Positions 2,072 through 42,993 are shown, counted from the first letter of the stretch. The stretch is DNA of 64,000 nucleotides from an uncultured bacterium (GCA_963819815.1 CAWFXL010000001.1:1280001-1344000), one strand, 5' to 3'. Made by a program: numbers and translations. Notes: generated by a model from the sequence alone, not told the origin.

Positions 2072-2187
2072 TTAAGCTTCCCTGATTTCTAAGGACTAAG
2101 TCATACTCTTTTCTTTTTGTGAGAGGGGAAAGATAATCTGTTTTTGCTTATGTACTGAGCAAACACATTACTTATCCACCCATGAAC

Positions 2188-5483: not shown

Positions 5484-7313
5484 TTATTCATCATCTGAAG
5501 AGCCTTCTTTTGACTCATCTTGTTTTCGTGCAGCATGCTTCTCAAGCTCAAGCTGAAGCTGTGATTTTTGCTTAGGAGCAGCTGGAGCTGCAGCCGTTTC
5601 AGGCTTCTTGCGAGCAATAGTAGGAGCTTTTTCTTTTTTACTCTTTTCTTTAGCAGCTGCTGAAGCAGCAACTTCTTCATCGCTACGCAGACTCAAGCCA
5701 AGCTTATGCTCTTCAGGACTTACTTTGATGACTTTAAAGGTTCTGGATTCTCCAATTTTAAGGATGTCCTCTACCTTCTCTGCATCTCCGCCAAGTTCAG
5801 AAACGTGCACAAGTCCTTCTATGCCAGAAGGAAGTTTTACGAAAGCACCAAAGTTAGTTATTTTACTCACTTCGCCCTCGACAGAAGAACCTACAGGGTA
5901 TTTCTCCACAATGTCTTCCCAAGGATTTGGAGTGAGTTGCTTGATGCCCAAGGAGATCTTCTTACTCTCTTTATTGATGCCGGTAATTACCGCTTCTACA
6001 AGATCACCTTTTTTATAGCGATCTGCAGGATGTTCAATATGCTCAGTCCATGAGAAGTCTGAGATATGCACAAGGCCATCAATCCCTGGAGCTAATTGAA
6101 TAAAGATACCAAACTCAGTTACGTTGCTTACTTTGCCCGTAATCTTCTGTCCGACTTCATATTTTTCGCTGATGGCATCCCAAGGATTTTGTTCAAGCTG
6201 TTTCACGCTTAAGGACATGCGACGATTTTCTTTATCAAGTGACACAATAAGTGCTTCTACTTTGTCACCAACCTTGTAGTATTTATGAAGATCGGTAATA
6301 CGATCAATCCATGATACTTCTGAGATATGGATAAGTCCTTCAACCCCAGGTACTACTTCAACAAAAAGCCCATAATCGGTGATACTTGATATAGTACCTT
6401 TAACTTTTGAGCCTATTTTGATTGACTCATCAATAGCTTCCCATGGATTTTCAGCAAGTTGCTTCATGCCCAATGAGATCTTTTCATGCTCTTTATCAAA
6501 CGAAAGAATCTTAACGGTTACCTTATCGCCAATTTTAACGAGCTCACTAGGGTGTCCGATGCGTCCCCAGGTCATATCGGTAATGTGAAGAAGTCCGTCA
6601 ACGCCTCCAATGTCGATAAATACCCCGTATTTGGTGATATTTTTAACCGTTCCTTGAACGACTGAACCAACATCAAGTGTTTCAAGTACTTTTTTGCGAC
6701 TTTCAGTACGCTCTTCATTCAAATATTTACGACGGGAAATGATCACATTGCCCCGTTTTTGATTAACTTTGATAATATGGGCAACAATGTTTTGGCCAAC
6801 GAACTGATCAAAATCAGCAACACGTTGGGTATCGACTTGTGATCCCGGTAAGAATGCAGGGATACCAATATCAACACTTAAGCCACCCTTAACTTTATGG
6901 GTAACCATACCTTCAACAGGCTTATTTTCATTGTAGAGCTTCATGATAGAGCTCCACGCTTTGAGCGCTTTCGCTTTCTCATAGGAGAGCATGACAGTGC
7001 CTACATGGTTCTCAAGCTCATCGAGCATAACTTCTAGGGTCGAACCGGGCTTTAATGCTTTGAGCTCATGTTGGGTAAATTCATACCCAGGGATAAGGCC
7101 ATCTGATTTGTAGCCGATATTTATAAGAACCCCATCAGAGTCAACCTTCAGGACGGTTCCTGAGATGATTGCTCCTTGGCGGAATGAATCTGCTATGCCT
7201 TCATAGAGGGAAGCAAGGTCTTTTTTTTGTGCCTCATTGAGGGTAAATCCAGTATCCTCAAGAGGTTGTTCTACGGTGCGAAATTGCGACGAGCGCAACA
7301 TCTCTTTTGCCAT
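5484..7313 (-). CDS. rpsA: 30S ribosomal protein S1
   Basis: Six S1 repeats (YGVFIDIGGVDGLLHITD etc.). Confidence 0.97.
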   Translation of the reverse strand: MAKEMLRSSQFRTVEQPLEDTGFTLNEAQKKDLASLYEGIADSFRQGAIISGTVLKVDSDGVLINIGYKSDGLIPGYEFTQHELKALKPGSTLEVMLDELENHVGTVMLSYEKAKALKAWSSIMKLYNENKPVEGMVTHKVKGGLSVDIGIPAFLPGSQVDTQRVADFDQFVGQNIVAHIIKVNQKRGNVIISRRKYLNEERTESRKKVLETLDVGSVVQGTVKNITKYGVFIDIGGVDGLLHITDMTWGRIGHPSELVKIGDKVTVKILSFDKEHEKISLGMKQLAENPWEAIDESIKIGSKVKGTISSITDYGLFVEVVPGVEGLIHISEVSWIDRITDLHKYYKVGDKVEALIVSLDKENRRMSLSVKQLEQNPWDAISEKYEVGQKITGKVSNVTEFGIFIQLAPGIDGLVHISDFSWTEHIEHPADRYKKGDLVEAVITGINKESKKISLGIKQLTPNPWEDIVEKYPVGSSVEGEVSKITNFGAFVKLPSGIEGLVHVSELGGDAEKVEDILKIGESRTFKVIKVSPEEHKLGLSLRSDEEVAASAAAKEKSKKEKAPTIARKKPETAAAPAAPKQKSQLQLELEKHAARKQDESKEGSSDDE

Positions 7314-7557
7314 GTATATATGCTCCTAGAGTATAGTTACCGATGAGAACCATAGGTAAGGTTGTAGGGTTTAACTGATACAATACTAGATCACTATACT
7401 ACGATTCTGCCTTTTTATCAATATGGGCCCACAAGTGGGCAAAAAAAGACTGCCATGGGCTATGGAAAATATCTATCTGCAAAGCTTTAGGTGCACACGG
7501 TTGGGTTAAGTTAGGATGGAACCGACCTTTTCTAAATCAAAGATACAAGAACACTCT

Positions 7558-8493: not shown

Positions 8494-9021
8494 TCACGTC
8501 AATCCCGTATAAATTAAGCAGACAACTGCCACACCTAGAAATAGAGTGCATGTTTGATAATCATCAATGATAGAGTATCTTGGTTGTAATGCTCTAATTA
8601 AATCAGTCTTTAGATTATTGCTTATTGGAAGTGGGCGTCCTCTATTTATTTTCGCCACAAGGGCAATTCTTATCAGTGTTGAGACATCCTCTACGCCCTT
8701 GGAACTTAACTCAGATTGATTGTGAAGCCATAAATCTGCAAGGTCTTCACATGCAGCATCAATAATATGATCTTTTGGTGCATCGTTGCTATTAAGAAGT
8801 GAAAGAAATAGAATCCTTGCATGAGTCAATCGGATATCTGCCGAGATTGTTTGTCTCATTTCCAACCAAGCTTGAGGAGTCTCTTTATTATAATTTGCAT
8901 AACTTGCGACTCTAGCAGGGGAGACTGGTTCAACGGTCTGATGTGCTGTGGTAGTGTGTTCAGATCCAAAAATACTCGAGCTCCCAAGGAGCACTACCGT
9001 TAGAATGAGATGTTTTTTCAT
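8494..9021 (-). CDS. Tandem-family secreted/membrane protein
   Basis: MKKHLILTVVLLGSSSIFGSE and ASYANY; C-terminal TM; ATGA overlap with the upstream paralog. Confidence 0.8.
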   Translation of the reverse strand: MKKHLILTVVLLGSSSIFGSEHTTTAHQTVEPVSPARVASYANYNKETPQAWLEMRQTISADIRLTHARILFLSLLNSNDAPKDHIIDAACEDLADLWLHNQSELSSKGVEDVSTLIRIALVAKINRGRPLPISNNLKTDLIRALQPRYSIIDDYQTCTLFLGVAVVCLIYTGLT

Positions 9022-9626
9022 AATAGATGAAGATGAAAGCCTGTCATGTACCCAAGCAAGCCGAGAGCTACCAGAATTGAAAAGGCGGTGCAGCAATTGT
9101 CTGCTTTGATTTCACGTTTATGCTCTGCTTTAGCGACAGTAGGGGTTCCGGTTTGTAGTAACATTCTACTTAGTTCAGCTTTTTGATTGTCCGCTAGAGG
9201 AGCTCCCCCTGCCTTTAATTTAAAAGCAACCATTGTTAACATTCCAAATTCCTTAAATTCCTTGTCCCCGAATTGTTCGTCCTTGAATGCCTCGTCATTT
9301 GAGTATTCATTAGTCACTAATAGACGATATACACCTATAAGGTCTTCAAGAGCAGCATCAAGAATATGATTGGGCACACTGTTGCTATGAAGAAGAGAAG
9401 TGAGGAGAGCTGCTTTTGCTTCAGCCATTCGTGTAACCACTAGGACCGCTTCTCTCTTTTTCAACCAAGTTTGAAGAGTATCTTTGCTATAATTTGCATA
9501 ATTTGCGGTTCTAGCAAAAGTGGCTGGCACAACAAGGTTGCGCGTTTTAGGTTTAGTAGCCGACTCAGATCCGAAAGCATATGGGCTTCCTAGGAGCACT
9601 ATTGCTAGAATAAGACGTTTTTTCAT
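9018..9626 (-). CDS. Tandem-family secreted/membrane protein
   Basis: MKKRLILAIVLLGSPYAFGSE, ANYANYSK, LDAALEDL; C-terminal TM. Confidence 0.8.
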   Translation of the reverse strand: MKKRLILAIVLLGSPYAFGSESATKPKTRNLVVPATFARTANYANYSKDTLQTWLKKREAVLVVTRMAEAKAALLTSLLHSNSVPNHILDAALEDLIGVYRLLVTNEYSNDEAFKDEQFGDKEFKEFGMLTMVAFKLKAGGAPLADNQKAELSRMLLQTGTPTVAKAEHKREIKADNCCTAFSILVALGLLGYMTGFHLHLL

Positions 9627-9816
9627 GGATAATCCTCAATTCAAAATGATTTCTTTGGGGCTGCATGGAACAAAATGCCTGTTTTTGCTTGTGCAGCTTT
9701 CGATCAAGTATAATTATTCTAAAAAGTACTGCAATGGGCACCTTTTAGTCAGATGCCCGTTGGTATTAGTCGAACGTTTAGTGTTCTGATCAAGAGTAAT
9801 TGTTCTCAAGAGTGCT

Positions 9817-9850
9817 TCAATTGGCACACCTCAAGAAGTGTGCCAATTGA
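9817..9850. terminator. 13-bp hairpin downstream of paralog 9867-10511
   Basis: tcaattggcacac-N8-gtgtgccaattga. Confidence 0.6.
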
Positions 9851-9866
9851 GTTAGCTAAAGATGTT

Positions 9867-10511
9867 CTAGTACTGGCGTAAGAGCGTATCTTGAAACTTA
9901 TAATAAATGAATTGCCATAGTATAGCGCTTGCCAAAGCTACATACAATCCATGCCCGATCTCATGATACATCAGATCGTATTCGCTGAGGTTATGTGTTG
10001 CCATCCAAATTGCAAAGCTGGCAACATAGACGCCAATGGTCGTTTCTCGCAGTGTTAACTTTCTATTAGACAACTGGGACTGTAATAATGAATTTACCTG
10101 AGCCTTTTGATCCTCCGTTAGAGGAAGCCCTGCCTGTGCTATCCTAGCGACTTCCGTTAGCCTGCTAAATTCTCTTACTTCCGCGTCATTTAGCTTAGAG
10201 TTATCAGTGATTCCGAGATGATATAAACCCGTAAGGTCTTCAATTAGTGCATCAAGAACATGCTTTGGTGCATTATTGCTTCGAAGAAAAGAAGTGATTA
10301 GAATCTTTGCCTCAGCCAATCGAATAGCTACAGGTACTGTATCTCTCGTTTCCAACCAAGCTTGTCGAGTCTCTTTGCTGTAATTTGCATAACTTGCGAT
10401 TCTATTGTCAGCTACTTGTTCAACGTTTTGACGTGCTGCAGTGGCCGATTCCGCTCCGAAAATACTTGAGCTCCCAAGGAGCGCTGTAGCTATAATAAGA
10501 TGCTTCTTCAT
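9867..10511 (-). CDS. Tandem-family secreted/membrane protein
   Basis: MKKHLIIATALLGSSSIFGAE; start chosen from the AAGGA RBS and family alignment. Confidence 0.8.
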   Translation of the reverse strand: MKKHLIIATALLGSSSIFGAESATAARQNVEQVADNRIASYANYSKETRQAWLETRDTVPVAIRLAEAKILITSFLRSNNAPKHVLDALIEDLTGLYHLGITDNSKLNDAEVREFSRLTEVARIAQAGLPLTEDQKAQVNSLLQSQLSNRKLTLRETTIGVYVASFAIWMATHNLSEYDLMYHEIGHGLYVALASAILWQFIYYKFQDTLLRQY

Positions 10512-10557
10512 AATAATCCTTAATGTAGAATGATTTCTTTTTGAACTTAATATAGCA

Positions 10558-10586
10558 AGTATAATAATTCTAACTGAAAGTGTCAA
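10558..10586 (-). promoter_or_regulatory. Sigma70 promoter, with related copies at 8448-8475, 9707-9734, 11384-11412 and 11627-11655
   Basis: TTGACA-17 bp-TATACT. Confidence 0.75.
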
Positions 10587-10730
10587 ATTCTCATTTATGA
10601 CAGCCTGGCGATCGTTTTTTGTCTGTGTTTGATCGGTGTTTTCATTAAAAATAAACCCTGTCTTCTTGACTAAAAAATTCAGGAAACCTTTGAAAGAGGA
10701 AGGTAATGATTACAGAGTCACTAAGCACCG

Positions 10731-10761
10731 CAATGGGTACCTGATTAAAAGGTACCCATTG
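10731..10761. terminator. 12-bp hairpin downstream of paralog 10767-11336
   Basis: caatgggtacct-N7-aggtacccattg. Confidence 0.6.
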
Positions 10762-10766
10762 TGATG

Positions 10767-11336
10767 TCAGCTTAACCTAATAGTTATAGGTGATACCAAT
10801 GCTGCAAAACTCAAGAGTCCAAAGATGGCCAAAGGCAGCACCACCAAAGGAACCATAGTTTGCATCAAACTAAGGCAACCATTTCTATTAGACGACCCGA
10901 GTTGTAATATTCTATTTGCCTCAGTCTCTTGATCATCCGTTAGAGGAAGCCCTGCCCGTACGCTCCTAGCAACTCTCGTTAGCCTGTTGAATTCCATTGC
11001 GTCCTCCTCGTCATTGAGCTTGGAGTTGTCGGTGATTGAGAGTTGATATAAACCTGTAAGATCTTCAAGTACAGCATCAAGAAGATGGTTTGGCGCAACA
11101 TCGCTGCGAAGAAGAGAGGCGAGTAAAATATTTGCCTCAGCCAATCGAATAGCTACAGGTACTGTATCTCTCGTTTCCAACCAAGCTTGTCGAGTCTCTT
11201 TGCTGTAATTTGCATAACTTGCGAATCTGGCGGCAGGGACTTGTTTAACCGTTTGACGTCTCTTAGTAGCCGATTCCGAGCCGAAAATACTTGAGCTCCC
11301 TAGGAGCACCGTAGCTATAATAAGATGTTTCTTCAT
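10767..11336 (-). CDS. Tandem-family secreted/membrane protein
   Basis: MKKHLIIATVLLGSSSIFGSE; C-terminal TM. Confidence 0.8.
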   Translation of the reverse strand: MKKHLIIATVLLGSSSIFGSESATKRRQTVKQVPAARFASYANYSKETRQAWLETRDTVPVAIRLAEANILLASLLRSDVAPNHLLDAVLEDLTGLYQLSITDNSKLNDEEDAMEFNRLTRVARSVRAGLPLTDDQETEANRILQLGSSNRNGCLSLMQTMVPLVVLPLAIFGLLSFAALVSPITIRLS

Positions 11337-11974
11337 AACTAATCCTTCATGTAGAATGTTTTCTTTTTGAACTAACCATTGCAAGCATAATAATACTATC
11401 TGAAAGTGTCAAAATCTTTATTTGCGACAGTCATTCAATCGTCTGTTGCCTGCATTTGATCGGTGTTTTTATTAAAGGCAAGCCCCCTTCGTCTTGGCTA
11501 GAAAATTCAGGAAATCTTTGAAAGAAGAAATTAATAATTACTGTAGACCTCTCCAAATCCCGCCAATTTTCATAAGTAAACCTTCCCAGTTTTCAATTGA
11601 TTTCTATATATTTCCAAATATAGCCAAGTATAATAATTCTATCTGAGGTGGCCAATTTTTTTTAATAATTACCACAGGCTTGACCTGGTGGTTGCATGTG
11701 GCTTATGTATCCATCTGATCGGAATTTGCATGAAAATGAGGAGGTGGGCTTTTCGTAGTTTTTCCTTGACGACAGGTCATTCGTAACCAGCAGTTCTTAA
11801 ATCTTAGTATACTTTTTTGTAATTTTCTGTATCCTGAAAATGTGTATAGTCTCTCAGGCATTCTCAGTTCACTTTGCGATACATCGATCAAAAAGAACAT
11901 TCTGGGGGATTTCCCACGTATAATGCTCCGTGATACTCGTATTGTGAAATATAAATGAGCTTGTCCTCTTTACT

Positions 11975-20989: not shown

Positions 20990-22150
20990 TTACTGTGTCA
21001 GCGCTTTGCTTCTTCTAGCTTGCAGTAATATGGTATGGGCTTTTTCAATAAGAGCGAAGACCCTTTTTGCATACTTTTTATTACTAGCGCCTTCTATATT
21101 TTTTGGATCCCATTGGGTTGCAAGTTTGGCATAAGCCTTTTCAACGTCAGGTGCCTTATAATCTTCATTAAGCCCTAAAATATACATGAAGGCATGCTCA
21201 GCCGTTAGAGCATGCGCGGAGCTACTTGCAGGAATAAGCTCAATAGGTAACTGATCCTCTGATATTTCTAACAGCTTATCAGCATCTAAGGTTTTCATGA
21301 TTGCTACGACCTCTGAGTCTCGGTAACGAGCAAAGGCTTCCAGCGGGCTGAGGGCCTGCATTAAAGCAGTATAAGCTTTTTCAACGAGGGCCAAGACCCT
21401 TTCGGCGAACTTTTTATGGGTATCGTCAATGGTGTTTTTTGGATCCCACTGAACTAAGAGTTCGATATAAGCTCTTTGAATATCTTCTTGGGTATAGTTT
21501 TTATCAAGCCCCAACATATACCTGAATACATCTCCAGCAGTTGTAGCATTCTGTATTCTACTAGCAGGCACAAGTTCTTTGTGTATCTGATCATCGGGAA
21601 GGTTTAAGAGTTGATCTACTTGTAAGATATTTTCTAACCTCCAGTAGCGTAACCGTCCAAAAGCTTCCAGGGGATTGCCCGATGCCATTATACTGTCGTA
21701 TTTCTTAGTAATAGCTTCAGGAAGTTTGTTTGAAAAATCCAACGTTAATTCACTGGGCCCCGTTAATGATTGCTTTGCAGAGAGGGTTATCACAAAGGGA
21801 TCTGTGTCAGAGTGCTTTACAATATCCCATTTACTGCGAAACATATGAGGGAATAATCCTGTATCTTTGATGCTGTGTCCCACGATTTGTCCATAGCCTG
21901 AAAAGGCAATTGTGCTTCCTGGTAAGAATATGTCGCTCATACCTATATATGCAACTTCCTCAGGGCTAACGATGCGAGAAATTTTCTTATTCGGAAGCTC
22001 ATAATAGGTAACCTTCAGAGGTACGCTGTAATATTTACCGATTAGGGCATTATTAACGATCACTTGGAATTTAGGTAGATCCATCGCTTTTAGGGAAAAC
22101 AAACTGCCTGCTATACATATCGTATGAAGAGAAATTCTTAAAAGGTCCAT
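20990..22150 (-). CDS. Secreted protein with two J-domain-like modules (HPD to DPK)
   Basis: Paralog of 19957-20814 with an internal repeat. Confidence 0.75.
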   Translation of the reverse strand: MDLLRISLHTICIAGSLFSLKAMDLPKFQVIVNNALIGKYYSVPLKVTYYELPNKKISRIVSPEEVAYIGMSDIFLPGSTIAFSGYGQIVGHSIKDTGLFPHMFRSKWDIVKHSDTDPFVITLSAKQSLTGPSELTLDFSNKLPEAITKKYDSIMASGNPLEAFGRLRYWRLENILQVDQLLNLPDDQIHKELVPASRIQNATTAGDVFRYMLGLDKNYTQEDIQRAYIELLVQWDPKNTIDDTHKKFAERVLALVEKAYTALMQALSPLEAFARYRDSEVVAIMKTLDADKLLEISEDQLPIELIPASSSAHALTAEHAFMYILGLNEDYKAPDVEKAYAKLATQWDPKNIEGASNKKYAKRVFALIEKAHTILLQARRSKALTQ

Positions 22151-22434: not shown

Positions 22435-23925
22435 ATGATACTAGTACGCATACTTGGGCTGTGTGGTCTTGCATTTAATATGTGTGCTATGAACCTACAA
22501 CTTGAGAAGGCAGTTATTCTTCCTCAAGAGCAACAAAAAGAATTACATCGCCAGCTGATGCAAGCTTCAAAAGTGGGAAATGCCTCTCTTATACGAGAGC
22601 TCCTTAACCAGGGAGCGCCATTACTAAAAAAAGATAAGGTGACGTATGTGCACGATGAGCGAGAGGCTGTCGATCTATTCTTTACCTATACAGCATTTGA
22701 TTGGGCTGCAGTATATGGGCATACTGAATGTATGGATGTTTTGCTTGATAGACTTGAAGATGCTACCCCACCGGCCTCGCGACAGGTAAACTATAATCAC
22801 CTCAAATCTTTAAAAGAGAAACGCACAGCTATAGTACCCCTTTTTCAAAGAGATCAAAGAAGTCTGGCTGCACTACGTACGTGTATCTCAAATATTCGGC
22901 GCTATATGAGTACCATCACAGTGCACGGATTTGCTGACCCTGAATGGTATGTGCTTGAACGGATAGTAAGTAGACTCGAGCAGCAGCTTTCACTTAATCT
23001 TGTACTCAGCTCTTGTTTGGCTAGCGACGATTCTTTACGTCAGGTATTACTGTCTGCGGGGGCAGAACAGGTTACGGATTCACCCCCAAGTGATTGTAGA
23101 ATACAGGAACATCTTGATAGGCTCGTGTCTTTTGCCGTCCTAGAAGGAAATCCAGAGCTTTTGCCGGCGCTTATTCGCAAAAAAGCGAACGTTAATGCTG
23201 AGACTGGCTGCGGAAACTTAACCCCATTGCAGGTTGCAGCGATGAGGGAAGAGATGTATATGGCAAGATTATTGCTTGATGCTGGAGCATCTGTTAACTA
23301 TGTAAGTACTACTAACGACTGTACTCCCCTTCAGCTTGCTTGTCTCTATAGATCATTTCGTACAGCGCTACTGCTTCTTGAGTCTGGTGCTCAAATGTGG
23401 GAAACGGAAGATCATATGGCACCCGCACTTCGTAATGCCATCGACTTTCCCTCCTATCTTAAGGTGGTGTTGCTAGCAAGTATACAAAGATATGCCCCCA
23501 CAAGAGAAGACGCCAAAAGGGCTCTTCAAAATATTGCAGAGGTTCTCTTATTTTCTAGTGCACTGGAAACTCCAAAGTTACAAACAATTGGACAGGAACA
23601 GGAGCAGCTCTTAATGAAAGAGAACATGAGAGATCTTGCAGTAATCTTTCTCTATCACTTTCATCGCAATGATCTTCTTGCCTTGTGGAGAGAAATTATA
23701 GAGGTAAAATCGCACATTTTGTGCGATGAAATGCTTATAGCACAACTGAATCAGTACATAGGGGCTCTTTTGAAGAGTGATGAAATCAAAAAGTTTGCCT
23801 GCCTCAGTCTTTTAAAACGGCTTGCTCAAGAGGGCGATCACTTATACGTGACTAACCAATTGGCAATTGAAGAGGGTTCTGTTCCATTCTTATATATATA
23901 TCAATGCTTGACCAAAAATAGCTAA
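22435..23925 (+). CDS. Ankyrin repeat protein with signal peptide
   Basis: TPLQVAA..LLLDAGASVN and TPLQLAC..LLLESGA. Confidence 0.85.
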   Translation: MILVRILGLCGLAFNMCAMNLQLEKAVILPQEQQKELHRQLMQASKVGNASLIRELLNQGAPLLKKDKVTYVHDEREAVDLFFTYTAFDWAAVYGHTECMDVLLDRLEDATPPASRQVNYNHLKSLKEKRTAIVPLFQRDQRSLAALRTCISNIRRYMSTITVHGFADPEWYVLERIVSRLEQQLSLNLVLSSCLASDDSLRQVLLSAGAEQVTDSPPSDCRIQEHLDRLVSFAVLEGNPELLPALIRKKANVNAETGCGNLTPLQVAAMREEMYMARLLLDAGASVNYVSTTNDCTPLQLACLYRSFRTALLLLESGAQMWETEDHMAPALRNAIDFPSYLKVVLLASIQRYAPTREDAKRALQNIAEVLLFSSALETPKLQTIGQEQEQLLMKENMRDLAVIFLYHFHRNDLLALWREIIEVKSHILCDEMLIAQLNQYIGALLKSDEIKKFACLSLLKRLAQEGDHLYVTNQLAIEEGSVPFLYIYQCLTKNS

Positions 23926-28387: not shown

Positions 28388-29596
28388 ATGAAAATAATTA
28401 CTGGAGAAAGTTCTATGAAAAGTTTCTATCTATCCTTTAAAGAAACCCATTTTACCTGGCTGCTCTTTATTTTTTCTAGTTTGAGTACACCTGCTTATTC
28501 GATGGTGTCCTGTGCCCTATTAAAGCAAGCTACGGATAAAGCTACCATTAAGTTGATTATCATAGGCGACGGACATAATCTTGCATGTGATACTGTAGAT
28601 AAAATTATTGATCTTATTGAGACTACAGAACAATCACAGCCGGTACATTGTATCGTTGAGGCTCCTGATCTTTCAGATCCACGAAATCTACTCTGTTTTG
28701 AAGGAGCACCGACGGTGAACAAGATTGTTTCTTATGCTCAACAGTCTACCTCTGGTGACAAACTTCGTGTTATTAGAGCGGATAAACGGAGTCATGAAGA
28801 AAGATTAGCGGGAAGCTGTCTAAACGATATCATTCTTTTCGCAAATTCTGTGAGTCGGGGGGAACTACAAGAAAATCAGATTACTTCTTTCATCGAAAAG
28901 TCCATAGAAGATGCTTCATTAAGTTGGGAAACGATTGATGATTTTTACAGGGCTCTTGAAAATAACTATGCATATGTAACTTCTTTAAAAGTACGCTTTC
29001 AAAAGCAACAACCAGCTCTTGCGGATTTTATTGATGCTTCCATGAAAACTTTTCTTCAAGCCCGGGCTGAAATAATGAGTATGCTCGATGGATCTCGTTT
29101 ACCATTGCGAGCAGCCATTTGGAAGCTCTTTAAAGATTGTAACACACTTGAAAAACTTGATGATCGCCAGCGCATGATAAGAGTCCTATTTACCGGACTT
29201 AGCGATCCGATTCTCGAATTAGCATATATTGAACAGTTTCTCATTCTTTCTCAAGGTGGCATGAAATATATCATTTTCGTCGTTGGGCATGCCCATCTTG
29301 CACCTCTCCTTAAGCTGTGCAATACATTGCACATGCAGGAACTTGTCAAAATAACACGACTTGAAGAGCGAGAGCCGAGAACTTATTATGTATCGAAGAG
29401 TGTTTCGAGTGCCGATGTTAGTCAGTGCATTATAAGTTCGCTTAAGGATTTACTTGTTGAAGAGTGTTTTTGCAGAGGATGTTTAAAAAAGGAAGCTTTG
29501 CAAAGATGCTCAGCTTGTAAGAAAGTGTGCTATTGCTCAGTTTCATGTCAATCCAAAGATTGGCAGGATCACAAGAAAACCTGTAAGCAGTTATAG
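28388..29596 (+). CDS. Secreted protein with C-terminal MYND zinc finger
   Basis: CRGC..CSACKKVCYCSVSCQSKDWQDHKKTC. Confidence 0.88.
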   Translation: MKIITGESSMKSFYLSFKETHFTWLLFIFSSLSTPAYSMVSCALLKQATDKATIKLIIIGDGHNLACDTVDKIIDLIETTEQSQPVHCIVEAPDLSDPRNLLCFEGAPTVNKIVSYAQQSTSGDKLRVIRADKRSHEERLAGSCLNDIILFANSVSRGELQENQITSFIEKSIEDASLSWETIDDFYRALENNYAYVTSLKVRFQKQQPALADFIDASMKTFLQARAEIMSMLDGSRLPLRAAIWKLFKDCNTLEKLDDRQRMIRVLFTGLSDPILELAYIEQFLILSQGGMKYIIFVVGHAHLAPLLKLCNTLHMQELVKITRLEEREPRTYYVSKSVSSADVSQCIISSLKDLLVEECFCRGCLKKEALQRCSACKKVCYCSVSCQSKDWQDHKKTCKQL

Positions 29597-29971: not shown

Positions 29972-31915
29972 ATGTGCGGCCTGATCTTTTGTATCATTAT
30001 TCTCTCAAATAAAATAAAGCAATTTCTTGTAACTCGATCTACAGGTGAGTATTCTGTAACTCCTAGTGTGAAGTCTTATGTCTGTAGCAAACTACACCCA
30101 CTTGTAGGTGTATTCTTGCTTGTTTGCTTACCACTTTCAGGTTCTGCGATGGTGCTCGATAGACAGACACCTCAGAATGAGAATGTTGCGGTAACTACTG
30201 AGCTAGAAGCTAGTGCTGTTCAGTCCAACTATGCGCTTATGCAACCTGTACTCGTAAGTAAACTTGGAGAAGGCGAGCTTAGCGTAGCACATGATGATGC
30301 ATGTTTGGTAGCAAAGTTCTTATTGTATCTTGATCGTGCAGGGGATCGTAAGCATTATCTTCTCGATCCAGTTAAACTACAGAAACTTCTCTACTATGTG
30401 CAAGGGTATGCGTTAGCAATCTATGGCAAAACTCTTTTTGCACAGCAAATGGTTCGTCATAATCATGGTGCCTTAGAGTGGGATGTGTTTCAGCATTTTA
30501 AGGGCCAAAGTTTCATACCAGATGACCAAGTTGCCGCATTAGGATATGATGCAAGTCAATACAATCACGCGTTTAAAGCGCATGTAGGAAGTGTTTTTGA
30601 AATGAAAAAGATGTGTGAAACATGGAAGCTTGTTGAGCAGCATCACCAAGAAGCGCCATACCTTATGGCTCAACAAGGACAAGTAATAAACTCAGATTCC
30701 TTGAGAGCATTTTTTAGTGATCCAAAGGAGGTAATAAAATATTGTGTTGGTCGTTTAATAACAGCAGCAGATAGCTCAGAAATTGCCGAGCTTATCAGAT
30801 ATATGCGAGAGTATATTTCCTATGGTCAGTTTGACAAAAAGCAGCTCTTAGAAATCGAACGTTATCTGTTGAGATCAAAAGATCAACTTGAGCGGGTATA
30901 TGCGCGGTATGAAGCTTCTGCTACGATTGCGTGGCGCGGCCAAACACCGCTGCAGACACTGTTGGGCCATTTCTTTTTTCCAGTACACTGTGAGTATGGT
31001 GCTGAGCCAATAGCTTTACTACAAATACGTGAGCCAATGCAATTAAGAATTGCTCTCTCAGCATCCCATGGGCATATACTTGCGCAATCCTATTGTGTTG
31101 AAATTCTCTCTTTATATGAAACAAATTCCCCCCCTTTTATAGAGGCGGTGGTACGGTATTTTGGAGAGACAGCTGCGAGTACTCATCAACTGTGCCTTGA
31201 AAACCCTTCGGATGGTTCAATGCCTTTTTATCTGTGTGGGCTTTATTGCATGTCTCGTAATAAGCTCAGTGGAGCACTTGCTCATTTTAAAAAAGGATTT
31301 GAGAGGGGAGATCCTTGGTGCAGATACCGCTATATTCTTATGATGCGTAACGCAGAAAAAAAACGGGAAGCGATGGCACGACAACCAAACATCCAAGAGC
31401 GCAAGGCATTAGCTTTAGAAGAATTACTTCAAGCGCGTATACTAGGTGATGTTAGCTTACGCATGGCGCATTATGTAAAGGCCGGTACACAGGGTATGGC
31501 CGAAGGATATCATTCAGCAGCGATTCTTGCCCGCGCACAAGGTGATGCAGTGACTGCTCGAAACTATTTCCTACTTGCAGCAAGAAATCATCTATTAAGC
31601 GACTTTGAAGAAGAAGCTTCAGTTCTGATTTCTCAAAATTGCATCGATAAAGCGAAGGTGGTCTATGAAACTATGGCGAAAGCTGGCGATGAAGCCGGAT
31701 TAATGCGTCTTGCAGCACTCTATATGAGAAATGAATGTATAGATGAAGCAAACAAGTTCTATGAAAAAGCTGGGTTGCGAGGATTGGAACAGATGGTCAT
31801 TAATGCAGTTCCTTGTAGTGAAGAGTTCATTCGATTGTCTGCGCGATGCCACACGTATAAACAAGATAGATTTAATGAACTGTTAACTCTTAGTAAAGGA
31901 GATCGGATCTCATGA
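29972..31915 (+). CDS. Panacea (SocA/DUF4065) domain fused to Sel1/TPR-like repeats
   Basis: VAKFLL..KLQKLLYYVQGYALAIYGKTLF..HG; C-terminal ARNYFLLAA and ANKFYEKAG repeats. Confidence 0.8.
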   Translation: MCGLIFCIIILSNKIKQFLVTRSTGEYSVTPSVKSYVCSKLHPLVGVFLLVCLPLSGSAMVLDRQTPQNENVAVTTELEASAVQSNYALMQPVLVSKLGEGELSVAHDDACLVAKFLLYLDRAGDRKHYLLDPVKLQKLLYYVQGYALAIYGKTLFAQQMVRHNHGALEWDVFQHFKGQSFIPDDQVAALGYDASQYNHAFKAHVGSVFEMKKMCETWKLVEQHHQEAPYLMAQQGQVINSDSLRAFFSDPKEVIKYCVGRLITAADSSEIAELIRYMREYISYGQFDKKQLLEIERYLLRSKDQLERVYARYEASATIAWRGQTPLQTLLGHFFFPVHCEYGAEPIALLQIREPMQLRIALSASHGHILAQSYCVEILSLYETNSPPFIEAVVRYFGETAASTHQLCLENPSDGSMPFYLCGLYCMSRNKLSGALAHFKKGFERGDPWCRYRYILMMRNAEKKREAMARQPNIQERKALALEELLQARILGDVSLRMAHYVKAGTQGMAEGYHSAAILARAQGDAVTARNYFLLAARNHLLSDFEEEASVLISQNCIDKAKVVYETMAKAGDEAGLMRLAALYMRNECIDEANKFYEKAGLRGLEQMVINAVPCSEEFIRLSARCHTYKQDRFNELLTLSKGDRIS

Positions 31916-32655
31916 AGCTCATTACATTCATATTGAGTATTTTTTGTTTACAGCATACTGTTGCGGGTACCTTGCAACTTATAGTATTTGAACCTGGTGA
32001 ATCATCCACTGTAATTATTTCATCATCGGGTACGATGGACTATCAACCACCATGCCTCATTAATCCAAATTTCATGGCGTCCTCGGAGCTCAGAAAAAAG
32101 GAGTTTATTGGACAGGTTGTTTCTTTTCTTGTGCAGTGTGCCATTCCCACAAACAATGATAAAGTCATCATTTGTGTAACAGATTCACAAGAGCTCAGCT
32201 ATAATTGTGCCATTGATATTCATAGTGGACTCATACAGCATGGTATACAGCCAGCTATTTATTTATTGGGATCAGAAGAATTATATAGCGAGACCTATAG
32301 AGGATTTCTCAAAGACTCAGATGCTGAAGTTAGTATTATTCCTTATAATCCTGCTATTGAACCGATGAGATTATCGCCAGTTGGCTTGGAAAAATCGCAG
32401 GGATCCATGGGTAGTTTTAGCATCATACGTATCGAAGTGCCATCTGCAATGGAGAAGGTATATATTGTTTTTGCTCAGGGAAGTGTTGAACGGGTATCTG
32501 CTTACCAGGTGGCGAGTATGGCGTATGCTGCCGGTCAATCGGAAGTGCATGAAGATCTTATGGTTCAAGAGGTTGGGGAATATATGTCCCCAGTGATGAG
32601 TCTTGAAGAGGTGTATGAATCGGAAGTCCAATTAAAAGAGAGAGTGATGGTTTAG
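31912..32655 (+). CDS. Degenerate (metal-ligand-free) MBL-fold paralog of the downstream gene
   Basis: Aligns by eye to the N-terminal half of 32668-34143; ATGA overlap with the upstream gene. Confidence 0.65.
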   Translation: MKLITFILSIFCLQHTVAGTLQLIVFEPGESSTVIISSSGTMDYQPPCLINPNFMASSELRKKEFIGQVVSFLVQCAIPTNNDKVIICVTDSQELSYNCAIDIHSGLIQHGIQPAIYLLGSEELYSETYRGFLKDSDAEVSIIPYNPAIEPMRLSPVGLEKSQGSMGSFSIIRIEVPSAMEKVYIVFAQGSVERVSAYQVASMAYAAGQSEVHEDLMVQEVGEYMSPVMSLEEVYESEVQLKERVMV

Positions 32656-32667
32656 AAGTCTAAAGTA

Positions 32668-34143
32668 ATGAGGAAGGTGTTTATGAATGTACGAATACTC
32701 TTTTTAATGCTCAGTATTATTTTTGAAGTAATTGGCGGTGAGAAGAAAATTTCTGTTACTAGCTTTGATGTTGCACAGGGTAATGGTGGACTTGTGGTAT
32801 GTTATGACCCTGAGGAAAATATTTCACCATGGCTTGTAGATGCGGGATGTAATTTCCTTAAGGCGACAAAGGGCAAGGCTTATACAAAAAAAGAAACTGT
32901 GAGCGAGATTGTTGCCGCAATTGACGCTGCCTGTACGGCAACAGGCATTGATGACTTTTATATTACGGTGAGCCATCCTGATATAGATCATTATAACCTT
33001 ATTCCTGATATTGTATCTGAGTGTATGAAAAAAGGCCGTGTGCCTAAAAAAATCGTGTTGGGAGGTATAGAAGAACTCTATGGAGCGGACTTTAGAGAGT
33101 TTTTGAATGAACAGCGAGATCTGCTAAGAAAAGCGGGCGCTGAAGAGGAAGAAGTAGAAGAGTTAATTCAATTTCCAACTCAGGATGGTAATACAACAAA
33201 TATTATAGAGTTAGCAGTTGGAAAGAATCTGCGCTATGAAATTCTTCCCGCACTTCAAGCTACAACTGTACCTGAGAAGAATGCTGGCAGTCTGGTAGTG
33301 CGTGCAGTCTACGGAACCCCATCATTTACGTTTTCAGGAGATGCAACAGGTGAAACTGAACAGCATATTATGAAGCATGAGCCTGAACTGACTATCACAG
33401 CTCTTTCTTTAGGTCATCATGGAGCCTCTACAGAAGGAAGCAACAGCTTACAATGGTTACGCCGGTTACAGCCGCAAATGGTTGTGGCTAGCTCAGGCAA
33501 GTCAAGCGGGTATAGACATCCTCAGAATTTGATTGTGAATCGTGCATCGGATGAACTGCCAGCGCATAAGGGTTGCTATAGAGCCGTGTTTGCGGGTTCT
33601 GAGACTAAAGGCGCAGACGAGGCCTCCTTCAAAGGATTCTCATCAAAGACGAGTTATGGGTTTCAGGTAACAAATAAACCTGTGTATGGGACCCTAGATC
33701 AAGGAAGCCTTACCTTTGAATGGGGACTTTATGATACCGATGTTAGGTTTGTACCTACCGCACATCAACAAGAATATAGGGATCAAAAAAGCTGTGTTTT
33801 AGCAACCTTAACGAAAGTGCCTAGAAGCAACATAGTATCTCCTAAAAACTTGACACACTTGAATCTTTCAAAGCTTGGTCTAGATGATGCAAAACCGAGT
33901 GACCTCGAATTTATTACAAAGCTGTTTGTGCTGCTAACTGAACAAAGCTCTAAAGTGCTTGAAAAGTTTCTCTTACATGACAATGCTATTCATCTTCCTG
34001 AAACTATAGTAGCGCTCATAGTTCCATTTATAACTAAGGAAGATACGGTTCTTGAGTTACTTGACATGAGTGAGAACAAAGGCCTACAAGAAGAAGAGAA
34101 AAAACTTTTAAAAGAATCTGCATTTTGCACCGTTCTTGCCTAG
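32668..34143 (+). CDS. ComEC/Rec2-like MBL hydrolase with C-terminal LRRs
   Basis: FDVAQG, LVDAG, SHPDIDH, SGDA, HHGAS, YRHP; LTHLNLS, LEKFLLHDN, LELLDMSEN. Confidence 0.88.
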   Translation: MRKVFMNVRILFLMLSIIFEVIGGEKKISVTSFDVAQGNGGLVVCYDPEENISPWLVDAGCNFLKATKGKAYTKKETVSEIVAAIDAACTATGIDDFYITVSHPDIDHYNLIPDIVSECMKKGRVPKKIVLGGIEELYGADFREFLNEQRDLLRKAGAEEEEVEELIQFPTQDGNTTNIIELAVGKNLRYEILPALQATTVPEKNAGSLVVRAVYGTPSFTFSGDATGETEQHIMKHEPELTITALSLGHHGASTEGSNSLQWLRRLQPQMVVASSGKSSGYRHPQNLIVNRASDELPAHKGCYRAVFAGSETKGADEASFKGFSSKTSYGFQVTNKPVYGTLDQGSLTFEWGLYDTDVRFVPTAHQQEYRDQKSCVLATLTKVPRSNIVSPKNLTHLNLSKLGLDDAKPSDLEFITKLFVLLTEQSSKVLEKFLLHDNAIHLPETIVALIVPFITKEDTVLELLDMSENKGLQEEEKKLLKESAFCTVLA

Positions 34144-34288: not shown

Positions 34289-35995
34289 TTAGAAATAGGC
34301 ATTAATGCCTACATACCATTCAGTTTCTTTTGGCACATTTCTTCCCGAGAATACCGTACTTGCTCCCCCAAAAACCTGAAGCCAACGCCAGAGCTCAATG
34401 AATGCCTCACCGCGTACCTTATGGCTGGTCGCGTTCGTATTTTTTCTGATAAGGTGAGCATCGAGCGGTTGCGTTACGCCAAGGCAATCGATTGCCTTGG
34501 ATGTACAAAAGTTCAGATGGTCGCATGTTTTATGGTAATTCTCATAACCAATTACGCCACCAAATCCATGACAGTTTGGCGGTGTGAAGAGCATGTCGAC
34601 ATGCAGAAGATAATAACTCCAGTGTACGTTAGCACGAACTGGTGTGCCAATATTTTTAATCTGGGCGCCTACAAAAGATGCTGCGACACATTCGCTCGCT
34701 CGAAGAACCCCATACCCTGTTATATCACCTCGTAGTGCTGCCCATCGGCAGGGTTTCCAGATTGCTTGTGCGCCAGCTTTTAACTCATAGTGACCATTAT
34801 TGCCAAGAGATGGCCTAAATACAAACTGTGGCTTATTGGAGCGTTTTGCCGTAGGCCAGCGAACTCCCGCATACCCTTCAACATAGAAACAGGGTGAAAA
34901 AAAATGACCTGTGTAGAATTCAGTATCAAGATCGCCAGCGCCTGACAGGCTTTGTGATGAAAAGGAGATGCCGCAGTTAGTAAAAATATCTTCTGCTTCT
35001 GGAGCAATACAGACAAGTACCTCCTCGACTTGAGCTTGAATGACTCGTGCTTCTTGTGTCGTTGTCGTACCTACAACGGATGGCACAATAAAGAGCATAG
35101 CTTGATGTGCCGAATCATTGCCAAGGGGAGTATACACAACAGATGAAGCAAAACGTCCCCTTCCTTGATCGGGAAGATTTGAGCCATCTGCATTAAGAAC
35201 AGGTAAGGCTTGGGCTGTTGCTTCAGGAATCGCCCAAGGCCCGAGTGGTAGTGAACCGCTGGTACTCTCAAGTGCTGATACTGGTGTACCTGATTGATTG
35301 GTAATATTTTGCTTAGAGATGCTTATGGGATTATTGGGAGGAAAGTCGGTATCTGCATAATTGACAATAGGGAGTGAGGCGGTAGGGCAGGGTTTACAGG
35401 TATAAGGTAACTTGGTAAGGAAATCAAGGCGGTAGGCAAAACTTTTTACTGCTGCACCATCAACCGTTTCTATGCGTTCTCCTAAAAACTCATCTATCGT
35501 TTCTCCGCCGAGGTCACTCATCCCATTTCCATGACTTGGTAGACGTTTAATACGGATTTTTTTTGCAGGGATTGAAGCACGTACCCCAAGCCTCCAGCAC
35601 TCATGAAAGCAGTGTTGCACATCTAGCCCTACAACGGCACCTTTTTCTTCATAGCGTATCCTCGGTCCTAGAATTGAGGTCGCTAGGAGAGGGTTGAGTG
35701 TGAATGTGCTAGCTGTTACAGTGCTATTCGCAAATGCTTCTTGGGGATTAAAGTTCGCTTTATTGAAAAAGAGCGTTGAAAGGGGAACATCACAACCATT
35801 ATGATTGTAGGCCTGTTTGGCCGACCGTTCATAACCGCCAACCCAGATATTTATGAGCCACGAGTCATTGCGCGAAATGTCAGTATAGGGTTTATTAAGT
35901 GGCCCTCTGCGCAAATCTAGGGGTGTTTCAAGTTGGCGTGCTTGTGCTGAGAAGTAGATTGCCAATACGGTACATATGCGTAGTGAGCGTGTCAT
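34289..35995 (-). CDS. Hypothetical exported, probably outer-membrane beta-barrel protein (start may be up to 36055)
   Basis: Signal peptide; alternating beta strands ending WYVGINAYF. Confidence 0.6.
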   Translation of the reverse strand: MTRSLRICTVLAIYFSAQARQLETPLDLRRGPLNKPYTDISRNDSWLINIWVGGYERSAKQAYNHNGCDVPLSTLFFNKANFNPQEAFANSTVTASTFTLNPLLATSILGPRIRYEEKGAVVGLDVQHCFHECWRLGVRASIPAKKIRIKRLPSHGNGMSDLGGETIDEFLGERIETVDGAAVKSFAYRLDFLTKLPYTCKPCPTASLPIVNYADTDFPPNNPISISKQNITNQSGTPVSALESTSGSLPLGPWAIPEATAQALPVLNADGSNLPDQGRGRFASSVVYTPLGNDSAHQAMLFIVPSVVGTTTTQEARVIQAQVEEVLVCIAPEAEDIFTNCGISFSSQSLSGAGDLDTEFYTGHFFSPCFYVEGYAGVRWPTAKRSNKPQFVFRPSLGNNGHYELKAGAQAIWKPCRWAALRGDITGYGVLRASECVAASFVGAQIKNIGTPVRANVHWSYYLLHVDMLFTPPNCHGFGGVIGYENYHKTCDHLNFCTSKAIDCLGVTQPLDAHLIRKNTNATSHKVRGEAFIELWRWLQVFGGASTVFSGRNVPKETEWYVGINAYF

Positions 35996-36164
35996 GACTG
36001 CCCTTGGTAGATCACAGATCTTCAATTGAATGCGTTCTTTTAACATTCGCTTCATTCTAGAAAATCAATTCTCTGGTGTCAAGGTTGCATGAGGCTTTTA
36101 GCAGAGTAATGCCGTTGAAGGAGCTCTTTCTGTACGTTAATTAAGATGATTAAGCAAAGAATGC

Positions 36165-41673: not shown

Positions 41674-42993
41674 ATGATATACGTAAGGCTCTTTGGTATT
41701 GTGATCGTATTAAGCATAGGATCAAGCTTATGTGCGATGCAAAAAACTTTGAAAGACTTGGCACTAGAGGCTATTCTGCATGATAATACGGGCGGTCTCG
41801 CTTTAGCAGTTGAGGAAAAAGAAAATGGAGTATACAATCATCCTTTTGAGATACGGCAACTGGTAAAGCTCAGGCATCTTAATGAAAACTTAACAGGTTT
41901 TTGGCAAACTATTCCCACAGCAATTCCTTTGTTTAAACGAACGGACAGGCATATATTAAGAGGACTTTCATTTTTGGGCACCTCAAAGTATGCCATGTCA
42001 GCCACAAAAAAAGGTTTGCTGCACGTATGGGATACTGAAGAGATAAAGTACGACGATGGCGGCAAAGCGGTTCCGGTAGCTGTTCACAGGACAGGTCATG
42101 ATGAATTATCGTCAATGGCGGTAAGCGTTGATGGAAAGTACTTTGCAACGGTGAGCGGTTCCCAAGTAGACCTGTGGATGGTAGGCATGTCGATTGCGCT
42201 ACCCTTTGGTTTGAGAGGGTCATGTAAGCACCCAAGAAGAATCTGTATGGTGTCATTTAATGGGCCGGATGCTGCTATGGTCACGGGAGATATCGAAGGG
42301 TACATGTATATTTGGAATCCTAACGATTTTGAAAATCCCGAGAAGGTTATTGAACCATATATTCGCTTTAATGGTCCTGATTGTGACTCATTTAAGAGAG
42401 TTCTTGCCTTACGCCTCTGTTCAGATGGGAAAACTTTCTTATCTGCTGGCTATACTCCCGTCGGTGACTGTATGCTACCTGTGATAAGAATCTCAGAACG
42501 AGCTACTGGAATGTGTACAAAGGAAATAGTGCTTGATTGTAAGACGATTATAGGTAAGGTTTCATTTATAGATGATACTCATGCTCTTACAAGTTTTACC
42601 AGTGGGGACCTTCTAATGACCGATATAGCTCTTGGAACCACCCGAACAGTTCATTTTGAAGATCTCTCTCTTGAAACAAGTGTTTTTAGTGACGATGGGC
42701 GTCATTTATTAACTGTAGGTAAGGATCATAGGGCGATACTTTGGCAATGGGGGAAAGATTATACATATGAGAAGATCAAAGAGTTTAAAGGTGATGGACT
42801 GATAATGAATCATTGTGCATTCAGAGCGGATGGAAATGTTTTCCTCGTGGGAAGTAGTATTGGTGCTCTTGATATGTGGTCAGTAACACAAGAATATAAT
42901 CGGTTGACTTTGGAAATGGCACAGTGCCTTACAAACATTACCAATTTGGTCACCCATCTGAAGGCCTATCAAAAGGTTAGTTTGAACGGATAA
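41674..42993 (+). CDS. WD40-repeat protein with signal peptide
   Basis: LHVWD, VFSDDGRHLLTVGKDHRAILW and similar repeats. Confidence 0.82.
   Translation: MIYVRLFGIVIVLSIGSSLCAMQKTLKDLALEAILHDNTGGLALAVEEKENGVYNHPFEIRQLVKLRHLNENLTGFWQTIPTAIPLFKRTDRHILRGLSFLGTSKYAMSATKKGLLHVWDTEEIKYDDGGKAVPVAVHRTGHDELSSMAVSVDGKYFATVSGSQVDLWMVGMSIALPFGLRGSCKHPRRICMVSFNGPDAAMVTGDIEGYMYIWNPNDFENPEKVIEPYIRFNGPDCDSFKRVLALRLCSDGKTFLSAGYTPVGDCMLPVIRISERATGMCTKEIVLDCKTIIGKVSFIDDTHALTSFTSGDLLMTDIALGTTRTVHFEDLSLETSVFSDDGRHLLTVGKDHRAILWQWGKDYTYEKIKEFKGDGLIMNHCAFRADGNVFLVGSSIGALDMWSVTQEYNRLTLEMAQCLTNITNLVTHLKAYQKVSLNG

Follow-up and report, generated by a model that had tools for sequence, protein, structure and literature searches.

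The three-gene locus described here lies at positions 29972-34143 of a window, by which we mean the whole stretch of 64,000 nucleotides (nt) that was analyzed (G000:C1:1280001-1344000), in the genome of a Dependentiae (Babeliales) bacterium of 1.64 Mb in 2 contigs. Throughout, G-numbers designate genomes of relatives (G000 being the source genome), L-numbers loci from wider scans and P-numbers database proteins. All on the plus strand, the locus comprises gene 1 (29972-31915, 647 amino acids [aa]), gene 2 (31912-32655, 247 aa) and gene 3 (32668-34143, 491 aa). The open reading frames (ORFs) and a direct reading of the sequence bear out the layout proposed in a first-pass annotation, namely three co-oriented genes with an ATGA overlap of genes 1 and 2 (31912-31915) and a 12-nt gap (32656-32667) before gene 3. 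The ATG of gene 1 follows a Shine-Dalgarno (SD)-like AAAGGAGG, and the SD-like AAAGGAG of gene 2 is located inside the 3′ end of gene 1. For gene 3, a second ATG at 32683, after GAGGAAGG, gives 486 aa and may be the true start; database versions have 478-486 aa. A promoter and terminator scan stayed at chance level (12 found vs 10.7 expected; 8 vs 3.7) and was not used. A search of sequencing runs listed no RNA run, and two DNA runs with shares of 0.38 and 0.05.

As the same annotation had stated, each of the three products begins with a hydrophobic, signal-like segment, here identified by a hydropathy heuristic. In gene 1 this segment spans residues ~44-60 (30101-30151), is conserved in the alignment and ends PLSGSA/M, the slash marking putative cleavage. 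By the same heuristic, such segments are present in 36 of 40 rows of the gene 3 family alignment and in 37 of 58 rows of the gene 1 family alignment, where many of the rows lacking one are evident fragments and most full-length rows have one.

Gene 3 was expected to encode a ComEC/Rec2-type metallo-beta-lactamase (MBL) with intact metal ligands and ribonuclease inhibitor (RI)-like leucine-rich repeats (LRRs), and this description held. Residues 28-292 match the NCBIfam model ComEC_Rec2 (TIGR00361; E = 1.2e-16, 60 bits against a cut-off of 190), within positions 441-648 of the model only, its C-terminal MBL part. The protein has no Pfam match, so no Competence channel domain (PF03772), it has no oligonucleotide-binding (OB) fold, and it stays below the TIGR00361 cut-off. 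In alignments of 12 and 40 relatives, S102, H103, D107, H108, D225, H250 and H251 are fully or almost fully conserved, and D105 almost fully. The best solved matches of the family profile are ComEC beta-lactamase-like domains (9ic4, E = 2.5e-23), with the HPDADH, a later Asp and the HHG of 9ic4 aligned to the corresponding positions of gene 3, including its putative metal-binding motif H103-P-D105-I-D107-H108 (32974-32991). An AlphaFold2 (AF2) model built on the 40-row alignment (predicted local distance difference test [pLDDT] 88.4, predicted template modeling [pTM] score 0.88) retrieved 9ic4 first in a fold search (E = 5.4e-15, TM-score 0.76 on the target), then the phosphorylcholine esterase Pce (E = 5.8e-11), then RNase Z/J-type nucleases. 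Passages of PMC12455585 describe the ComEC beta-lactamase-like domain as a Mn2+-dependent nuclease that relies on H-x-D-x-D-H, D700 and H725 and whose activity is nearly lost on mutation of H598, D602, H603 or D700, and name Pce as its nearest structural neighbor.

Downstream of the enzyme domain, the C-terminal ~110 residues of gene 3 form predicted RI-type LRRs. The family profile, at ~350-460, matches 4per (E = 8.4e-16), 3tsr (E = 2.1e-13) and NLRP LRRs, and the model displays helix/strand alternation at residues ~373-480 (33784-34107); searched as a single protein, gene 3 gives no Pfam LRR hit. One paralog of gene 3 in G006 has ankyrin repeats at the C terminus. Because of these motifs, the fold match, the LRR or ankyrin tails and a model match restricted to the MBL part, gene 3 is best described not as a ComEC but as a free-standing, putatively exported hydrolase of the ComEC type whose eukaryote-like tail varies. 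Its most likely activity is that of a metal-dependent nuclease or phosphodiesterase.

The closest known counterpart is thus the ComEC nuclease domain of Moorella glycerini (9ic4), the best match in both profile and fold, with which gene 3 shares the H-x-D-x-D-H, GDA and HHG motifs and a putative extracytoplasmic location. Unlike ComEC, gene 3 has neither OB fold nor competence channel; it is predicted to be soluble and exported, carries an LRR tail, and is patchy in distribution, multi-copy and accompanied by a dedicated partner gene with tetratricopeptide repeats (TPRs). Pce/CbpE of Streptococcus pneumoniae (1wra, 2bib) also combines a secreted MBL module with a C-terminal targeting repeat domain, made of choline-binding repeats where gene 3 has RI-type LRRs; its motif, presumably, is HxHxDH rather than HxDxDH, and we know of no partner gene for it. 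A search of viral contigs returned 3 weak relatives of gene 3. In G003, a 247-aa gene-3-like ORF (L036:5825-6568, the same gene as L064:5929-6672) keeps HxDxDH and ends shortly after HHG; being a truncated MBL, it differs in kind from gene 2, and the region holds ankyrin-repeat genes.

Gene 1 encodes a putative exported protein made of a Panacea domain, a conserved middle region and a TPR/Sel1-like solenoid, in line with the Panacea plus Sel1/TPR-like repeats first proposed. Residues 136-229 (30377-30658) match Pfam SocA_Panacea (PF13274; E = 8.7e-9, 36.7 bits against a cut-off of 25.7), a match of 40.5 bits in a whole-genome scan and the only one in G000. The protein is not a member of the SocA_antitoxin equivalog (NCBIfam NF047745), scoring 14.7 bits against a cut-off of 190. 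Taken alone, gene 1 gives only a faint TPR match (Pfam TPR_2, E = 0.015); the repeats become clear at the level of the family, whose profile matches a consensus TPR (E = 7.8e-25), the Sel1 protein 8sxq (E = 7.8e-17) and AlgK (E = 6.7e-5) in the Protein Data Bank. A look-alike search of the ESM Atlas with residues 235-647 found Sel1/TPR look-alikes only (0.83-0.84), which serve as leads only.

To delimit the family, a profile of six gene 1 relatives was run against 1.84 billion representative proteins and gave 54 hits at E <= 1e-30. Some of these hits cover the whole profile and others begin at the middle region; short stand-alone Panacea proteins rank below them. The 58-row alignment (A5) contains gene 1, P0011, 53 profile hits and 3 locus translations, and excludes short fragments, proteins of more than 1000 aa and stand-alone Panacea proteins. 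Pfam detects Panacea in 27 of these 58 rows and not in the other 31, and TPR families in at most 10. One member without Panacea, P0027, has a Pfam core-histone match (E = 3.8e-6) ahead of the middle/TPR region, a further eukaryote-like N-terminal add-on within the family. The 58-row alignment offers no stretch of sufficient conservation for a metagenome scan; one with the 6-row gene 1 alignment found 2 loci only, one of them a near-identical relative, and viral contigs yielded no relative of gene 1.

The distribution of the two families links genes 1 and 3. Gene-3-like genes occur in 7 of 41 related genomes, G000 included, and full-length gene-1-like genes in 3; across 261 genomes of the order, matches to gene 1 beyond the TPR region are confined to G000, G001 and G006. 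Among the contexts examined, eight of nine gene-1-like genes adjoin a gene-3-like gene: those of G000, G001 (where the pair is split over two contig ends), L043 and L106, and four of the five in G006, a congener. These four lie directly upstream of gene-3-like genes, without gene 2; the fifth copy stands alone. Three of the G006 pairs overlap by 11-17 nt and one is pseudogenized, with stop codons in both genes, and the paralogs stay paired though 70-76% diverged in protein sequence. The gene 3 family was further sought in the genomes of 185,579 species, which returned 67 loci, one of them with a gene 3 ortholog of 87% identity, and a gene 1 profile search of the six-frame ORFs at these loci identified partners in two besides G006. 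At L043, a metagenome-assembled genome (MAG) of the Paracaedibacteraceae, a 589-aa protein matching profile positions 281-617 (E = 7.5e-45) precedes a 564-aa MBL-LRR gene by 6 nt; at L106, from a further MAG, a 430-aa gene-1-like protein (E = 6e-12) lies 4 nt before a 498-aa MBL-LRR gene. Pfam detects no Panacea in either partner. Because L043 is an alphaproteobacterial Paracaedibacteraceae MAG, the pair is present in a second phylum. One more pair is hinted at by P0011 and P0003, which are 50% identical to gene 1 and 58% identical to gene 3, respectively: for each, the longest contig given has 8127 nt. Counting these two as a pair, protein distances within one family track those within the other across 7 pairs (Mantel r = 0.89, permutation p = 0.0014).

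Gene-1-like genes are thus mostly paired and gene-3-like genes often stand without gene 1, so gene 1 depends on gene 3 and not vice versa. Two side observations concern these loci. L109, a short contig, has a 69-aa open frame in ATGA overlap with the end of a gene-1-like gene; this frame does not resemble the gene 3 profile (E = 0.24). At L043, the gene pair and an ATPase gene lie between two direct repeats (1-300 and 7193-7492; 84% identical across 300 nt, at a distance of 7192 nt), each of which runs on into a near-duplicate ORF of 177-180 aa, which hints that the pair may sit within a mobile or duplicated cassette.

The relationship to ComEC raises the possibility that gene 3 is a periplasmic nuclease for DNA processing or nucleotide scavenging, supplying in trans the nuclease domain that ComEC lacks, with gene 1 as a periplasmic scaffold or inhibitor and no host targeting. 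In all 21 Babeliales genomes searched, the ComEC "Competence" frame is ~345-445 aa long, spans roughly the first half of the model and lacks an MBL part; that of G000 is a 413-aa ORF with no MBL part, gene 3 matches only itself in that genome, and its closest solved relatives are ComEC nuclease domains. We nevertheless consider this explanation improbable. The short ComEC is found in 21 of 21 genomes searched and gene-3-like genes in only 7 of 41, the gene 3 family has expanded to at least 4 diverged copies in G006 and in G003, its tails are eukaryote-like, and gene 3 evolves faster than gene 1 (dN/dS between G000 and G001 of 0.42 vs 0.27; 0.18 for gene 2, over just 115 codons with 10 differences). 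Concerning ComEC itself, the gene in G000 (G000:C1:1165552-1165944; L110, ORF 1447-2688, minus strand) matches positions 10-143 of the 270-position Competence model, and in 7 of the 21 Babeliales genomes the other half of the model finds a weak match at a separate place, a sign that ComEC may be split in Babeliales.

Pairwise complex prediction, a check proposed at the outset, gave a clear result for genes 1 and 3. With residues 105-647 of gene 1 (58-row alignment) and 27-480 of gene 3 (40 rows) folded together, the interface score ipSAE was 0.77, 0.85 and 0.86 (median 0.85), compared with 0.00 for all three controls, with a contact agreement of at least 79% and a partner pLDDT of at least 87. 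The score mark used is reached by 116 of 157 solved complexes and by 2 of 215 mismatched pairs, and is a rough guide only, custom alignments having been used here. All confident predicted contacts of gene 1 fall at residues 343-630 (30998-31861) and none in the Panacea domain, keeping in mind that residues not named by this method are uncertain. On gene 3, the contacts are residues 46, 69-96, 113-125 and 144-156, corresponding to three N-lobe helices of the AF2 model, then 327-328, 364-366 and, at the start of the LRRs, 382-394. The functional linkage claimed at first therefore stands for genes 1 and 3, as a linked and putatively exported pair adjacent across paralogs and phyla and predicted to interact, but not for a unit of three genes.

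An exported toxin (gene 3) with its immunity protein (gene 1), directed against bacteria competing in a shared host cell, would also account for a predicted tight complex of two proteins in the same compartment, for tight gene coupling and for several pairs in one genome that co-diverge in a cognate-looking way, the diverged pairs then forming a polymorphic repertoire. We regard this as unlikely: there is no delivery system or polymorphic-toxin N-terminal domain nearby, the variable part of gene 3 is the eukaryote-like tail and the enzyme the constant part, catalytic residues are not named among the predicted contacts, and the gene 1 family, at ~430-650 aa, is far above the size of typical immunity proteins.

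The setting of the locus is that of likely exported host-interaction proteins. According to passages of PMC6561590, signal peptides are present on 44% of the coding sequences of one cultivated member of the Dependentiae, among them nucleases, proteases and 78% of its ankyrin proteins; for TM6 genomes, PMC4776705 describes components of type II secretion. G000 has at least 4 secretin-domain genes. Three of ~800-940 aa lie within 7.5 kb at G000:C1:1178086-1185459, and a further secretin locus is near 22 kb. Within the window, ORFs combining a hydrophobic N terminus with a eukaryote-like domain encode DnaJ (20990-22150), ankyrin (22435-23925 and 60365-61120), MYND (28388-29596) and WD40 (41674-42993) proteins, which are likely exported for host interaction. 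Their signal-like N termini often end A-M followed by D, E or N.

The Panacea domain invites comparison with PanA/SocA antitoxins (PF13274; PMC8832971), which gene 1 resembles in carrying this domain, in adjoining a potentially harmful enzyme and in its predicted direct binding. Gene 1 differs from them in that it is putatively exported, is ~4x longer, makes its predicted contacts from the TPR part and belongs to a partnership that persists without Panacea. As we understand the Panacea class of toxin-antitoxin pairs, both proteins would be cytoplasmic and have no export signal. A cytoplasmic PanA/SocA-type toxin-antitoxin or anti-phage module, with gene 1 as antitoxin, gene 3 as toxin and gene 2 as accessory, is the least likely reading, and indeed a very improbable one, because of the export-type segments, the Panacea-independent partnership, the failure against the SocA equivalog and the lack of a convincing PADLOC match. 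It does draw on a Panacea domain above the Pfam cut-off and on an adjacent, conserved gene pair with its partner in at least 2 species, as passages of PMC8832971 ask, although gene 2 here lies in between; the same passages describe Panacea pairing with many unrelated toxin domains and accessory third genes at a minority of loci. Against it, hydrophobic export-type N termini are found by the heuristic on all three proteins and most family members, and Panacea is undetected in over half of the family rows and in the L043 and L106 partners, which are still paired with an MBL. Residues 136-229 are absent from the confident contacts, and no gene 1 relative was found in viral contigs. PADLOC-DB 2.0 returned 0 families for genes 1 and 2 and, as its one weak hit, a match of gene 3 to the candidate model PDC-M48B (E = 9.6e-4, 16.6 bits). 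The main text of PMC8832971, supplements aside, does not contain the terms "lactamase," "signal peptide" or "TPR." Between the two options originally offered, an exported effector set therefore fits better than a defense module.

Gene 2 had been described as a ligand-free copy of the gene 3 MBL domain. The homology and the loss of the ligands stand, but the similarity, though real, is confined to the N-terminal lobe as far as sequence comparison can tell. BLASTP aligns gene 2 with gene 3 at 29% identity over 95 aa (E = 4e-7), placing DSQELS opposite HPDIDH, and hhalign aligns its residues 20-134 with residues 27-147 of the gene 3 family (probability 82%, E = 1e-5); the GDA and HHG stretches are missing in the multiple alignment. 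In the AF2 model, only residues 20-146 (31969-32349) are ordered, as beta-beta-beta-alpha-beta-alpha-beta-alpha, the order of an MBL N-lobe, and residues 147-247 have a pLDDT below 50. Descent from an MBL N-lobe is thus supported by BLASTP and hhalign, and a complete MBL sandwich with metal motifs was not found. Searched with gene 2 as query, the 41 genomes gave it only in G000 and in G001, the closest relative of G000, and in a collection of 5.8 billion proteins, searched at 135-433 aa, gene 2 matched only itself. It is best described as a young, lineage-specific derivative of the gene 3 N-lobe. The first-pass annotation had gone further and proposed a conserved three-gene system with two cognate regulators; on the distribution just given, and with gene 2 absent from the pairs of G006, L043 and L106, conservation of the three genes was rejected. 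Co-occurrence in gene neighborhoods thus held in G006, L043 and L106 for genes 1 and 3 but not for gene 2.

Whether gene 2 does anything is a separate matter. It could lack a function and be what is left, in decay, of a partial gene 3 duplication, its frame still open by chance, a possibility we take seriously while leaning the other way. Its restriction to two genomes, the lost catalytic motifs, a C-lobe that is missing or disordered and the lack of any usable look-alike in the ESM Atlas all fit decay. However, the 247-codon frame is intact, with a signal-like N terminus, its own SD-like motif and ATGA coupling to gene 1. In G001, moreover, the copy retains its frame through two compensating in-frame indels, and shows 97% identity over its 115 readable codons, where 6 changes are synonymous and 4 non-synonymous, small numbers to be read as such. 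With regard to the predicted complex, 38 of the 53 residues of gene 3 in contact fall no further than residue 160, most of them within the 27-147 region retained by gene 2, and genes 2 and 3 have the same residue at 10 of 30 aligned contact positions compared with 17 of 89 elsewhere, which is suggestive only.

Based on these results, we favor, with somewhat better than even confidence, a model in which genes 1 and 3 form a Sec-exported two-protein unit of an intracellular bacterium associated with protists, composed of a host-directed nuclease or phosphodiesterase and a TPR clamp serving as its escort or regulator. Gene 3 would be the enzyme, its RI-type LRR tail (ankyrin in one paralog) targeting a host component. 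The TPR/Sel1-like solenoid and middle region of gene 1 would clamp the three outer N-lobe helices and the LRR start of gene 3, the pair assembling after export, and gene 1 would then act as escort or regulator, whether as a holding inhibitor, a stabilizer or a targeting subunit. The two proteins may exit the cell together via a secretin-based pathway, and gene 2, devoid of catalysis but retaining the face predicted to bind gene 1, may be a decoy or modulator. The analysis shows the domain identities, the conserved linkage and the in-silico complex; that the proteins pass beyond the periplasm, what gene 3 acts on, which way regulation runs and whether gene 2 has a part in it are inferences of the model.

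Several observations weigh against this model. The N-terminal Panacea domain of gene 1 appears as an optional add-on, for which the model offers no role. Gene-3-like genes in G002, G003, G005, G012, L069, L071, L094 and L105 have no gene-1-like neighbor within ~6 kb, and the enzyme therefore does not generally need gene 1. The signal peptides were assigned by the hydropathy heuristic alone. The predicted contacts lie on the helical face of gene 3 and name no catalytic residue, although residue 113 comes five after H108; a simple plug of the active site is therefore not indicated. Interface columns are more variable than others in both families (mean entropy 3.11 vs 2.69 and 2.89 vs 2.43), so that conservation gives no independent support to the interface, although such variability fits cognate-specific surfaces. 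As for gene 2, its AF2 model was guided by gene 3 family rows, so fold comparisons with MBL proteins are not independent; Foldseek found nothing at E <= 0.001, and VIA-align gave mostly MBL proteins, and also STAS proteins, at a middling Z of 7-8.5.

A more specific version of the favored model, which we hold as tentative and rather doubtful, is that of an undescribed binary exported effector of bacteria that infect protists, in which the TPR clamp would hold a nuclease derived from ComEC and directed to the host by its LRR or ankyrin tail. The pair would have moved between Dependentiae and Paracaedibacteraceae, Panacea would have been recruited in Dependentiae, and gene 2 would be a catalytically dead decoy, still bearing the face bound by the clamp and tuning release of the enzyme.

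Related arrangements are known in part. The secreted repeat proteins and nucleases of Chromulinavorax destructans come from the same phylum and share the design of a signal peptide with a eukaryote-like domain; the secreted Dependentiae nucleases are proposed, in passages of PMC6561590, to break down host polymers. The examples given there are single proteins, whereas the present locus holds a conserved two-gene unit with a predicted heterodimer. The all-helical solenoid of gene 1, predicted to wrap a surface of its partner, recalls the class II chaperones of type III secretion and periplasmic Sel1/TPR scaffolds such as AlgK, a likeness in kind only, with no specific homology to any chaperone family shown. 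Gene 1 would in this respect be a functional analog of the TPR/Sel1 partner proteins that accompany secreted proteins. In the literature on Panacea, on ComEC domains and on Dependentiae genomes, we found no description of the gene 1/gene 3 pairing, although the supplementary cluster tables of PMC8832971 could list one. The unit is a secreted enzyme with a cognate partner protein, in which two known domains are reused in unusual ways.

Regarding the neighborhood, gene 1 is preceded by a 375-nt spacer and, upstream of it, the signal-bearing MYND-finger ORF. On the other side, a 588-aa ORF on the minus strand (34289-36055) converges with gene 3; it has a signal-like N terminus, a C-terminal Phe and no Pfam or NCBIfam match, and may encode an outer-membrane protein. 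Elsewhere in the window, four tandem paralogous ORFs of ~200-240 aa on the minus strand (8494-11384, comprising 8494-9096, 9018-9626, 9867-10586 and 10767-11384) have a common type of N terminus, MKKHLI..LLGSSSIFGSESATK, and no Pfam match; they look like an array of a small secreted-protein family.

Dependentiae are widespread and almost unstudied parasites of protists, the only clues to their effectors being signal peptides and eukaryote-like repeats. The locus described here offers a concrete and testable unit of enzyme and partner, with a high-scoring predicted interface and defined catalytic residues, and natural variants are at hand, with and without Panacea and with differing targeting tails. 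The ComEC nuclease domain appears here reused as a free, exported enzyme, and Panacea, known from cytoplasmic toxin-antitoxin pairs, appears in a putatively exported multidomain protein. Confirmation of binding and regulation would extend the range known for both domains, and if the binary effector holds true, it would be the first case of Panacea working outside the cytoplasm.

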